In this document: positions 33,810 through 35,662 of the stretch, in pieces | Layout of the letters: each line of letters begins with the position of its first letter | Numbering within the stretch: position 1 is the first letter of the stretch | Translations under genes and position numbers: made by a program | From: Myxococcales bacterium | GTDB lineage: Bacteria; Myxococcota_A; Polyangia; Fen-1088 | Assembly: GCA_022184915.1 (NCBI GenBank) | Contig: JAGTJU010000004.1 | Location: 416,057 to 480,056, forward strand | Direction of reading: 5' to 3' | DNA: 64,000 nucleotides | Notes under the pieces: model-generated | What the model was told of the DNA's origin: nothing | The model's database searches: none | The model's input: only the letters and a program-made list of their open reading frames with translations

Positions 33810-33990
33810 TGAGACCTCCTGGATTTGCGCGTCCTTGTCTAGCGTCCAGGGGGAAAAATGCCAATAGCAAAGTGCGGCGGAGGGGGGGAGGGGGGCTGCC
33901 TACATCGGGCAGGCGGGCCCGGGACCCCTCCGCAGGGGCGAACAAGTTGAACGGCGGCTTGCTGGTCGTTACCATCCGTGCCAAGCCATC

Positions 33991-34635
33991 ATGATGACCG
34001 CACGCGCTCACGGCCGGGCAGAAGCGAAGGTGAAGAGCGCTGGTCTGCAACCAGTACCCGACGTTTACATATCGACGGACATCGAGACGGACGGGCCCAT
34101 CCCCGGGCCGTTTTCGATGTTGTCGTTTGCCTTCGTCGAGATTGGAACCTTCGATGGGGCGCGCCTCTGCCGACCGCAGACGCCGCGCACCTTCTATCGG
34201 GAGCTGCGGCCCATTTCTGATCGCTTCGAGAACGAGGCGTTGGCGGTAAACGGGCTGGACCGTGGCAGGCTGCTCCGTGAGGGAACGGATCCTTCCACCG
34301 CGATGGAGGAGGCGCGCCACTTCGTCTCCGAACTGGCCGGGGGAGGAACTCCTGTTTTGGTGGCGTATCCGCTCTCGTTCGATTGGAGCTTCCTCTACTG
34401 GTACTTCGTGAGTTTTGGGGGCAGGTCGCCGTTCAACCATTCCCGGTGCTTCGACTTGAAGACGGCCGTGGCTGTAAAGGGGCGGCGCACGATCCTACGC
34501 GCGGGGCGGGATCAGCTGCCGGCTTCGCTGCAGAGTCGGATGAGTCACACGCACCACGCGTTGGACGATGCGATGGAGCAGGCCGATATTTTCGCACGCG
34601 TTTTCGATTGGGACGGTGCAGATGACGACGAATGA
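33991..34635 (+). CDS. DEDDh-type 3'-5' exonuclease (DnaQ/RNase T-like) of unknown role
   Basis: 214 aa. Exo I ISTDIETDG, Exo II YPLSFDWSFL, Exo III HHALDDAMEQ. Its 3' end overlaps the next gene by 14 nt. Confidence 0.65.
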   Translation: MMTARAHGRAEAKVKSAGLQPVPDVYISTDIETDGPIPGPFSMLSFAFVEIGTFDGARLCRPQTPRTFYRELRPISDRFENEALAVNGLDRGRLLREGTDPSTAMEEARHFVSELAGGGTPVLVAYPLSFDWSFLYWYFVSFGGRSPFNHSRCFDLKTAVAVKGRRTILRAGRDQLPASLQSRMSHTHHALDDAMEQADIFARVFDWDGADDDE

Positions 34636-35662
34636 CGAGTTCTTCACCGAACGAGCGAAGAATACGGCCGCGAGGGTGGCGGAGTGGTCGGCGGCATTCG
34701 AGGAGGAGCTTGGGGTCGACGGCAGGTCGGCGTTGTCCGACGGATGTGTGTACGCGGTGGGGTCTGCCGGAAGGGGCGAGCTTGGTGGGTCAAGTGACCT
34801 CGATGTCTTCATTGTGACGAACGGCGAACCATCCCGAGTGAATGAAGCGCTCGTGCAGGCCCCGCTCATAAGGATGATGCGGCGTTTCAAGTTGCCGCCC
34901 CCCTCTAACGACGCCACTTTCTTGAGACTGCATGGCGCCTCAGAGTTGGAGCACCGCCTCGGCGCCGTGAATGACGACTCGCCTCAGAACACGTTCACGG
35001 CAAGAATGCTCTTGCTTCTCGAGAGCAGGCCCTTTTACGGCCAGGAGGCCTATAAAGCCTTGCTCCGACGGGTTGTTCAAGCGTATTGGCGAAACGAACA
35101 AGCTCACGCGGATCATTACCTCCCCATGGTGCTGGTCAATGACATCGTTCGTTACTGGCGGGTCGTCCTGCTCAATTACGAAGCCAAGTTCGCCAGCAAA
35201 GAGCGTGAAGCCAAGACGTCAGGGGAGCTGGAGCAGGTGCGGCTGGCCAAGTGGCTGGCGAGCTACAAGCTCAGATTCGCCCGCTGCATGACGTGTTACT
35301 CGATGATCATCGTGCTGCTTTGGCAAACGAGAGAACAAGAGGGCAAGCTCCCTCACGTAAGTCAAGACATGATGCTCGAGCTGATCGGCCTGACACCCGT
35401 GCAGCGACTACAAGCCGTTCTGGCGGAAGCGACGGGCGCTGGTGCGGGTGGTGTTGTCACTCTCGTGGATGAATTGCTCGCGCTGTATGCCGGCTATCTC
35501 GCGTCGCGCACGATGCGGGATGACGAGTTGAAGGGCAAATTGCGCGACCGCTCGAACGGACCGTCTTTGTTCGAACGCGCAGACACGTTCGGCGACAAGA
35601 TGGCGCAATTGGTGCAGGAGCTGGGAAGGTCATCGCGATTGATCCGATATGTGGTGGTCTGA
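34622..35662 (+). CDS. Pol-beta-superfamily nucleotidyltransferase with helical C-terminal domain (CD-NTase/OAS/SMODS-like)
   Basis: 346 aa from MTTNDEFF. GSAGRGELGGSSDLDVFIV matches the GS...(D/E)hD nucleotidyltransferase signature. A ~280-aa helical domain follows. Confidence 0.6.
   Translation: MTTNDEFFTERAKNTAARVAEWSAAFEEELGVDGRSALSDGCVYAVGSAGRGELGGSSDLDVFIVTNGEPSRVNEALVQAPLIRMMRRFKLPPPSNDATFLRLHGASELEHRLGAVNDDSPQNTFTARMLLLLESRPFYGQEAYKALLRRVVQAYWRNEQAHADHYLPMVLVNDIVRYWRVVLLNYEAKFASKEREAKTSGELEQVRLAKWLASYKLRFARCMTCYSMIIVLLWQTREQEGKLPHVSQDMMLELIGLTPVQRLQAVLAEATGAGAGGVVTLVDELLALYAGYLASRTMRDDELKGKLRDRSNGPSLFERADTFGDKMAQLVQELGRSSRLIRYVVV

Follow-up and report, generated by a model that had tools for sequence, protein, structure and literature searches.

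This analysis concerns a compact two-gene locus of 1.7 kb in a Myxococcales bacterium (GenBank assembly GCA_022184915.1, contig JAGTJU010000004.1, positions 416,057 to 480,056 of the forward strand; the whole stretch of 64,000 nucleotides is referred to below as the window), in which the gene of a DEDDh exonuclease overlaps that of a nucleotidyltransferase (NTase) of the Pol-beta fold. Among described NTases, the GlnE/DrrA class is known from nitrogen regulation and from a Legionella effector. Among described exonucleases, the Cap18/Exo clade selectively hydrolyzes 2′-5′ phosphodiester bonds to yield 5′-nucleoside monophosphates (NMPs) and does not degrade DNA or RNA; its substrates include the linear intermediate of cGAS-like enzymes and 2′-5′ oligoadenylate (2-5A), and the pocket of the Vibrio enzyme (VcExo) is shaped by P15, V55, and F120 (bioRxiv 10.1101/2025.03.04.641389). 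Additionally, the PDC systems are 145 candidates predicted from their embedding in BREX, DISARM, or type I restriction-modification (R-M) loci (bioRxiv 10.1101/2024.01.29.577857), and PDC-M70, a PADLOC candidate, is the one that concerns us here.

When compared to these systems, the exonuclease-NTase pair, judging by the fold and profile of its NTase and by the lack of an effector, does not belong to the CD-NTase (cGAS/DncV-like nucleotidyltransferase)/OAS family, and it is not an operon of the cyclic oligonucleotide-based antiphage signaling system (CBASS). The pair appears to be undescribed, although PDC-M70, a computationally proposed candidate, is of a similar kind. PADLOC had no model for it, nor for the 2H phosphoesterase that takes the place of the exonuclease in other loci, and our literature search found no description of exonuclease-NTase or NTase-2H pairs, including under PDC-M70 or under DUF294 combined with an exonuclease. 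Pairs of a cNMP-CBS-DUF294 protein and a PolIII-epsilon-like exonuclease may exist near actP/acs in Pseudomonas and Vibrio, but no weight is placed on them here. Across the loci collected here, the exonuclease and the NTase form one functional module: they are co-translated, pass on together, and are now and then joined in a single protein.

Conservation of the pairing and exchange of the partner

The NTase was searched for in one genome per species (185,579 species), which yielded 330 tblastn-confirmed stretches from several phyla, and the best 80 loci were analyzed. The exonuclease gene was situated directly beside the NTase gene in 43 of these 80 genome loci, either co-directional and upstream (Myxococcota, Binatia, Acidobacteriota, Planctomycetota, and one spirochaete) or divergent and upstream (Solirubrobacterales and Thermoleophilia). 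Conversely, a search that started from the exonuclease alone yielded 80 metagenomic loci (51-74% identity), and the NTase was present in 67 of them, directly downstream in 59 and divergent upstream in 8. Nearly all the remaining metagenomic loci did not have enough flank to tell, two or three being real exceptions; the exonuclease loci without an NTase include L160 and L163. Relatives also show overlapping or abutting genes for the two proteins, for example with a 17-nt overlap in L081. The conservation of the pairing in both directions, along with one natural fusion, bears out the proposal of an earlier, preliminary description of the window that the two genes form a single functional module. 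A third conserved gene or effector was not found among the open reading frames (ORFs) within 4 kb clustered in the 80 genome loci, in Pfam and PADLOC searches of 130 neighboring ORFs, or in the 80 metagenomic loci. The natural exonuclease-NTase fusion (P0358, 548 aa, L179:1012-2658) is of the Rosetta-stone type; it rests on one metagenomic contig, and an assembly or frameshift artefact is possible.

Regarding the other NTase loci, 26 of the 80 have a gene for a 2H phosphoesterase of ~200-220 aa immediately after that of the NTase, and none of these also has the exonuclease. Two HxT motifs (AHxTVRGP and PHITxYDG) are invariant in this protein, which matches the Pfam family 2_5_RNA_ligase2 with 31.3 bits (cut-off 27); a profile search of the PDB gave nothing significant, the match to Acb1 (E 1.2) being at noise level. 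In six loci (L037, L040, L042, L048, L058, and L068), the 2H partner constitutes the N-terminal domain of a protein of 715-1250 aa. Of the two fusions examined in detail, one joins the 2H domain to a type IIG R-M enzyme (L037:6922-10674, PADLOC 2.8e-144) and the other to a type II N6-methyltransferase (L042:6910-9144). The R-M enzyme that carries the presumed "eraser" 2H domain beside a GlnE-like NTase in L037 is an unexplained combination.

Among more distant NTase relatives, which are plasmid-borne (~27% identity), the gene after the NTase encodes in each case a different small putative hydrolase. The partner is a "sugar phosphate isomerase/epimerase" TIM-barrel protein (PDC-M70B), for which no PDB sequence match was found, in Mesorhizobium and Sinorhizobium, a histidine phosphatase in Rhizobium, and a HIT protein in Mycobacterium. 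On the plasmid of Mycobacterium sp. SMC-8 (L092:3896-5385), the NTase relative overlaps the HIT-domain gene tail to tail, and the neighboring genes, which give the locus a defense-like setting, encode an AAA ATPase, an EEP-family nuclease/phosphatase, and a type I HsdR; this may be a further NTase-hydrolase variant. A solo NTase of the same superfamily (L087:711-1706, PDC-M70A 182 bits) is present on the ColE1-type E. coli plasmid pISHS7_5 (NZ_CP092257.1, 4499 bp), where the Rop gene is the only other annotated gene and no hydrolase partner is annotated.

In a neighbor-joining tree of 83 NTases, the partner type followed the NTase clade. The window sequence fell within the clade with a co-directional exonuclease, the clade with a divergent exonuclease was sister to the 2H clade, and the TIM-barrel, HIT, and histidine-phosphatase forms were outgroups. 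Residues G47, S48, R51, S58, D59, and D61 did not vary among 68 relatives that represent all three partner clades, nor in five that are more distant, and further putative active-site residues (D118, T126, R128, E134, N173, D174, R177, and R221) were invariant across all clades. Because the active-site residues do not vary among the partner clades, the chemistry of the NTase looks constant and the phosphoesterase interchangeable.

Family assignment of the two proteins

For the exonuclease, 4413 homologues were found. Pfam returned Rv2179c-like and RNase_T only at cut-off level, and the PADLOC model PDLC00753 (CBASS "Effector/Exonuclease") matched with 120.6 bits (1.5e-35), followed by the generic DEDDh model with 40.8 bits (7.9e-11). 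The sole PDB sequence match, even at E ≤ 10, was the Cap18 of E. coli upec-117 (7T2S, 2e-19). The PADLOC and Cap18 matches place the enzyme in a family that trims nucleotide-signal intermediates, which agrees with the preliminary description, where it was suggested to degrade or trim an oligonucleotide signal or to act as effector. Each residue of the DEDDh set (D30, E32, D131, H188, and D193) is kept by no fewer than 97% of the 116 homologues aligned. The positions that correspond to VcExo P15 and F120 (P36 and F148) are conserved as well, and that of VcExo N97 is a conserved proline in the window family. By its sequence matches, the exonuclease is accordingly placed in the Cap18 clade, with a genomic partner that is new for this clade. 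The CBASS Cap18/Exo enzymes are its closest characterized relatives, with the DEDDh pentad and the pocket Pro and Phe in common, and in both settings the exonuclease is encoded beside an NTase whose output it presumably limits. In contrast to CBASS, the partner in the window is an NTase of the GlnE/GlnD/DrrA type and not a CD-NTase, and Cap2/Cap3, HORMA/TRIP13, and effector genes are absent. Exonucleases on Klebsiella plasmids that adjoin a type II CBASS operon (SAVED, CD-NTase, ThiF/Cap2, and MPN/Cap3) are only ~35% identical, whereas those paired with the NTase are at least 50% identical among themselves; the association with CBASS is limited to these ~35%-identity relatives, while a GlnE-like NTase is the partner in 67 of 80 loci.

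For the NTase, a word-indexed search recovered 333 homologues, and when 1.84 billion proteins were searched exhaustively with the profile, 2096 cluster representatives were recovered. The family was tentatively read as distinct from GlnD and GlnE because the latter number is far below the one that we would expect if GlnD and GlnE had been captured. Among the Pfam models, NTP_transf_2 alone passed its cut-off (6.4e-6), DUF294 reached 19.1 bits versus a cut-off of 21, and the GlnD_UR_UTase and DUF294_C models did not match the protein; the NCBIfam GlnD models matched at 4e-5, far under their cut-offs. An AlphaFold2 model built from 30 homologues was confident, reaching a predicted local distance difference test (pLDDT) score of 94.1 and a predicted template modeling (pTM) score of 0.92. 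In a Foldseek search with this model, DrrA was the top match (probability 1.00), and GlnE was matched with a template modeling (TM) score of 0.45. When the profile of the family was compared by hhalign, residues 84-174 of E. coli GlnD were aligned with an E value of 3e-5, versus a probability of 0.15% for the CD-NTase of a Klebsiella CBASS. The alignment with GlnD pairs VGSGGRGE..SDLDLF with VGGYGRGE..SDVDLL and LLLESRP..G with LIESRLLIG, the "ESR..G" helix of the E. coli protein.

The active-site pattern G-S-x-G-R-x-E...S-D-x-D is the one seen in GlnE, GlnD, and DrrA. The catalytic motif G[GS]...[DE]x[DE] is also present (G47-S48 and D59-x-D61), and since it is common to all Pol-beta NTases it does not discriminate for membership in the CD-NTases. 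In the predicted structure, the core and the helical domain that follows it have the fold of the GlnE/GlnD/DrrA type; the protein falls outside the curated Pfam families GlnE, GlnD_UR_UTase, and DUF294/DUF294_C. The likeness to cGAS, DncV, OAS, and SMODS enzymes that the preliminary description had seen in this protein is not supported by the fold or by the profile comparisons. The same description had named a best match of GlnE/GlnD type, combined with a lack of conserved pairing, as evidence that would speak against it; the former was found, whereas the pairing is strongly conserved. The window NTase differs from GlnE, GlnD, and DrrA in having only 12-13% sequence identity to them, in being a single standalone domain without ACT, HD, GEF, or second NTase domains, and in leaving the proposed erasing to a second protein of the DEDDh or 2H type.

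PDC-M70 resembles the window pair in several respects. Both are two-gene modules composed of homologous standalone NTases of ~320-350 aa and an overlapping or abutting gene for a small putative hydrolase, the invariant NTase residues are common to both, and both are found among mobile and defense genes. The Mesorhizobium and Sinorhizobium pairs can be equated with PDC-M70 because of their scores on PDC-M70A (487-495 bits) and PDC-M70B (~350 bits). The window NTase, in contrast, scored 98.4 bits (1.3e-28) on PDC-M70A and is ~27% identical to these members; its partner is an upstream Cap18-type exonuclease that does not match PDC-M70B, which sits downstream, and in the window the NTase gene is followed by a lipoprotein-like ORF that is unrelated. 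The window NTase is tentatively placed, as a PDC-M70A homologue, outside the core family, and the pair is not counted as a core PDC-M70 member.

Proposed function and rival explanations

We tentatively favor, at a little under even confidence, the interpretation of the pair as a self-contained, horizontally moving writer-eraser module for nucleotidylylation that would take part in biological conflict, either as phage defense or as a toxin with its antidote. The NTase would use a nucleoside triphosphate and attach the NMP through a phosphodiester bond to a hydroxyl of its target. The acceptor would most likely be a protein side chain, with the ribose 2′-OH of a nucleotide or RNA as the main alternative. 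The co-translated Cap18-type enzyme would hydrolyze the NMP-phosphodiester adduct to 5′-NMP and so hold the modification at a subthreshold level, from which infection or stress would release it; DarT-DarG, and Exo within CBASS, follow such a logic. A writer and a potentially reversing hydrolase in one operon are what the architecture of the pair and the swapping of phosphoesterases present. A target-modifying, toxin-like writer is favored because there is no separate effector and because all characterized structural relatives nucleotidylylate proteins; that a nuclease can fill the role of eraser has a precedent in the deAMPylase activity of RNase Z (PMC12663964).

DarT-DarG is likewise a horizontally mobile two-gene operon in which a nucleotide-derived modification is installed by one enzyme and hydrolyzed by the other, as we suppose for the window pair. 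The families are unrelated, namely an ADP-ribosyltransferase and a macrodomain in DarT-DarG versus a Pol-beta NTase and a DEDDh or 2H enzyme here, and for the window pair toxicity and triggering by phage are presumed.

The genes neighboring the pair in other genomes encode proteins with matches to DrmA, McrBC together with a McrB-like AAA_5 protein, MkoA/MkoC, LmuA, TOTE primase, type I R-M, a UvrD/GajB-like helicase, and a DRT-like reverse transcriptase/helicase; counted from the family lists, about a dozen of the 130 neighboring ORFs had defense-type matches. The plasmid-borne NTase relatives adjoin SIR2, AbiEii, HsdR, and AAA ATPase genes. A conflict or defense role for the pair is plausible, and this part of the minimal conflict system that had been suggested at first can be retained. 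A role in conflict is also favored by the embedding among BREX, DISARM, and type I R-M systems from which the sister family PDC-M70 was predicted, by the R-M and TIR fusions, and, in the window, by the atypical codon composition of the pair and the IS elements directly downstream. The suggested layout of signal plus effector is not evident, because the pair has no conserved neighbor that could serve as effector or receptor. Relatives in viruses were found neither by sequence in viral contigs nor by structure among viral structure predictions. An NTase of the same family with intact catalytic motifs is fused to a TIR domain in P0366 (L178:2999-4483), and this TIR domain matches PdTIR (3H16) at 3.9e-39 and AbTIR at 3.5e-38. 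On this 4.9-kb contig no exonuclease or 2H gene is visible; two genes without annotation, coding for 531 and 364 aa, are situated upstream, and a PDB sequence search with the gene upstream of the fusion gave no match.

Several observations weigh against the writer-eraser interpretation. Across the genome loci, the exonuclease (46-65% identity) is much better conserved than the NTase (28-43%), which is unusual for an antitoxin, and Cap18-type enzymes so far act on 2′-5′ dinucleotides and 2-5A and not on protein-NMP adducts. The exonuclease subfamily is not strictly tied to the NTase, because a 63%-identical copy occurs without any NTase at L084:5001-5666 and L085:1009-1674. Additionally, 11 of the 80 NTase loci had no recognized partner, two of them being truncated contigs, ~9 of 80 have no recognizable partner, and no common neighbor was found among the 11. 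A recent review places ~1.5% of bacterial genes in anti-phage systems, and the comparison of the dozen in 130 with this figure is a rough one, made without a matched control. Housekeeping genes are also found as neighbors, such as those for ribonucleotide reductase, an aminotransferase, and carbamoyl-phosphate synthase; the pair in L081 lies between the dUTPase gene and the genes for lipoate ligase and the 2-oxoacid dehydrogenase E2, and the pair in the window is flanked by tricarboxylic acid (TCA) cycle genes (mdh-sucCD). The surroundings of the solitary exonuclease at L084 and L085, with many small ORFs, an HTH_3/Peptidase_M78 gene, a DUF2326 fragment, and an AAA_21 ATPase, have the look of a mobile element.

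If the writer-eraser interpretation is right, an enzyme of the GlnE/DrrA type would be widely used as the active part of a mobile two-gene conflict module in which the hydrolase has been swapped repeatedly. The Cap18/Exo family would gain a second, much more tightly linked partner and, with it, a natural system for asking what these enzymes erase, and a mechanistic handle on PDC-M70 would be provided. A wider claim, which is possible but which we hold with more doubt, is that these loci represent a previously unrecognized class of immune module. An NTase with the GlnE/DrrA fold would be its effector or signal generator, the product would be a macromolecule of host or phage that has been nucleotidylylated, or else a 2′-5′-linked nucleotide from an enzyme that is neither cGAS nor OAS, and the erasers (Cap18-type exonuclease, 2H, HIT, and TIM-barrel proteins) would be interchangeable. 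Should such a class exist, 2′-5′-specific Cap18 activity would extend beyond CBASS, and the chemistry of protein or nucleotide AMPylation would be linked to anti-phage defense.

Since Cap18-type activity is known on 2′-5′ dinucleotides and 2-5A, a nucleotide or RNA acceptor is favored over protein on this point, and since all Pol-beta NTases use the same chemistry, the fold alone does not fix the acceptor. The strongest rival builds on this: in the manner of OAS or cGAS but with a different fold, the NTase would make a diffusible 2′-5′-linked oligo- or dinucleotide signal, which the Cap18-type exonuclease or the 2H protein would degrade to set a threshold, with the receptor or effector encoded elsewhere or the product itself being inhibitory. 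We consider it rather unlikely, even though the exonuclease belongs to the 2′-5′-selective clade that also cleaves 2-5A, the same exonuclease family is partnered with an NTase in CBASS, and the alternative partner is a 2H phosphoesterase, from a superfamily that includes 2′,5′-phosphodiesterases and the anti-CBASS enzyme Acb1. The NTase resembles CD-NTases and OAS neither in structure nor in profile, and its characterized close structural relatives all modify proteins. Moreover, to our knowledge every nucleotide-signaling defense operon has an effector or sensor gene, whereas no SAVED, STING, CARF, transmembrane, or other effector or sensor gene is conserved in more than 100 loci.

The modification of proteins by GlnE, GlnD, and DrrA, with which the fold and the active-site motif agree, would also fit a housekeeping switch. 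The NTase would then reversibly nucleotidylylate a metabolic or signaling protein encoded elsewhere and the exonuclease would remove the NMP, with no role in conflict. The combination of writer and eraser is the classical logic of the GlnE/GlnD family, and the metabolic neighbors in the window (mdh-sucCD) and in L081 (lipoate ligase and 2-oxoacid dehydrogenase E2) would fit it. This explanation is improbable in view of a distribution that is patchy and rare (330 stretches among 185,579 species, in several phyla), an atypical codon composition, and the lack of any conserved neighbor or candidate target gene, to which are added the insertion sequence (IS) and defense neighbors, the R-M fusions, the TIR fusion, and the plasmid-borne relatives.

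More remote is a toxin that tails RNA 3′ ends in the manner of MenT or AbiEii, with an antidote that trims them. The NTase would extend the 3′ ends of tRNA or other RNA, and the DEDDh enzyme or a USB1-like 2H protein would remove the added nucleotides. The two-gene architecture with overlapping genes is compatible with this, DEDDh and 2H enzymes both include RNA 3′-end trimmers, and among known NTase toxins there are some whose antitoxin is an enzyme or a modifier; the Exo of S. marcescens, a member of the Cap18 clade, is nevertheless inactive on single- and double-stranded DNA and RNA, and we regard this explanation as very unlikely. Finally, an ANT-type antibiotic nucleotidyltransferase beside an unrelated gene was rejected as scarcely credible, the matches to ANT(3'')(9), AadA, and ANT(4') in Foldseek (E 0.05-0.5) and to ANT(9) in NCBIfam (E 0.094) being weak, although one distant relative (L091) is clustered with genes for glycosyltransferases and an MFS transporter.

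Coordinates and surroundings of the locus

Table 1. Positions of the pair and of the features around it, counted from the first nucleotide of the window.
Feature	Position	Strand	Basis or remark
mdh	32871..33809	minus	Upstream of the pair, with sucC and sucD also on the minus strand
Divergent intergenic region, presumed promoter of the pair	33810..33990		181 bp between mdh (minus) and the exonuclease gene; ORF map
DEDDh exonuclease of the CBASS Cap18/Exo clade, 214 aa; proposed eraser (5′-NMP-releasing phosphodiesterase)	33991..34635	+	PADLOC and PDB matches
Overlap of exonuclease stop and NTase start, 14 nt; translational coupling	34622..34635	+	ORF map and independent gene calls
Pol-beta-fold NTase of the GlnE/GlnD/DrrA structural class, helical C-terminal domain, 346 aa; proposed writer	34622..35662	+	
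Lipoprotein-like ORF, first part	35649..36005		Split by the IS630 element, continuing from 37472 onward
IS630-family element, 1.5 kb	35972..37471		Recent insertion
Transposase ORF of the IS630-family element	36294..37406	minus	
SLFN-group-3/DUF2075-type helicase, 697 aa	38216..40309	+	Pfam 6e-52; just past the IS630 element
Two adjacent ORFs (268 and 328 aa) and the ORF that follows	40584..42386 / 42649..43254		The two adjacent ORFs have no Pfam match; the ORF that follows has a weak match to DUF4411
IS66-family transposase	44177..45901	minus	Flanks tRNA-Asn
tRNA-Asn	46209..46301	minus	
rve-type integrase	46535..47611	minus	Flanks tRNA-Asn

The exonuclease and NTase ORFs are taken to be real genes and not chance ORFs because they have many homologues and conserved catalytic residues. 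The exonuclease ORF contains the motifs STDIETDGPIPG (DIETDG), SFDWSFLYW (FDWSFL), and HTHHALDDA (HHALDDA). The NTase ORF is listed as 34568..35662 (+), and its internal ATG at 34622 gives the 346-aa product that contains GSAGRGELGGSSDLDVFIV. In public contigs that are 99-100% identical, independent gene calls gave the same products of 214 and 346 aa in the order mdh-exonuclease-NTase; together with the ORF map, they reproduce the overlapping two-gene locus, its divergence from the TCA genes, the extent of the overlap, and all the motifs as originally reported. A scan of the intergenic region for sigma-70 and terminator consensus sequences gave nothing convincing, a consensus that says little for a high-GC host. 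The GC content at third codon positions was 0.72-0.74 in the pair (exonuclease 0.74) versus 0.89-0.90 in the adjacent TCA genes; in this respect the pair resembles the neighboring IS630 element and not the TCA genes, which indicates horizontal acquisition.

Downstream of the pair, the Pfam scan identified the IS630 transposase, the SLFN-g3/DUF2075 helicase, the IS66 transposase, and the rve integrase, in line with the IS elements expected there; the helicase is the gene that the preliminary description had given as NERD-DUF2075, and the match covers its DUF2075 part. The AbiE gene that had been announced for the same region could not be confirmed, as the two candidate ORFs had no Pfam match and a tblastn search with one AbiEii protein returned nothing. 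The ORF that follows the adjacent 268- and 328-aa ORFs showed a weak match to DUF4411 (PIN-like, 3e-4). Sister-strain contigs (99.4% identical) join window position 35971 directly to 37472, without the IS630 element, and in these strains a lipoprotein-like ORF of 217 aa (signal LLVANGGC) starts 5 nt after the NTase. Further downstream, the GC content drops to 0.56-0.62 over 44-51 kb of the window, and the tRNA-Asn region with its IS66 and rve genes is a possible site at which a genomic island has integrated.

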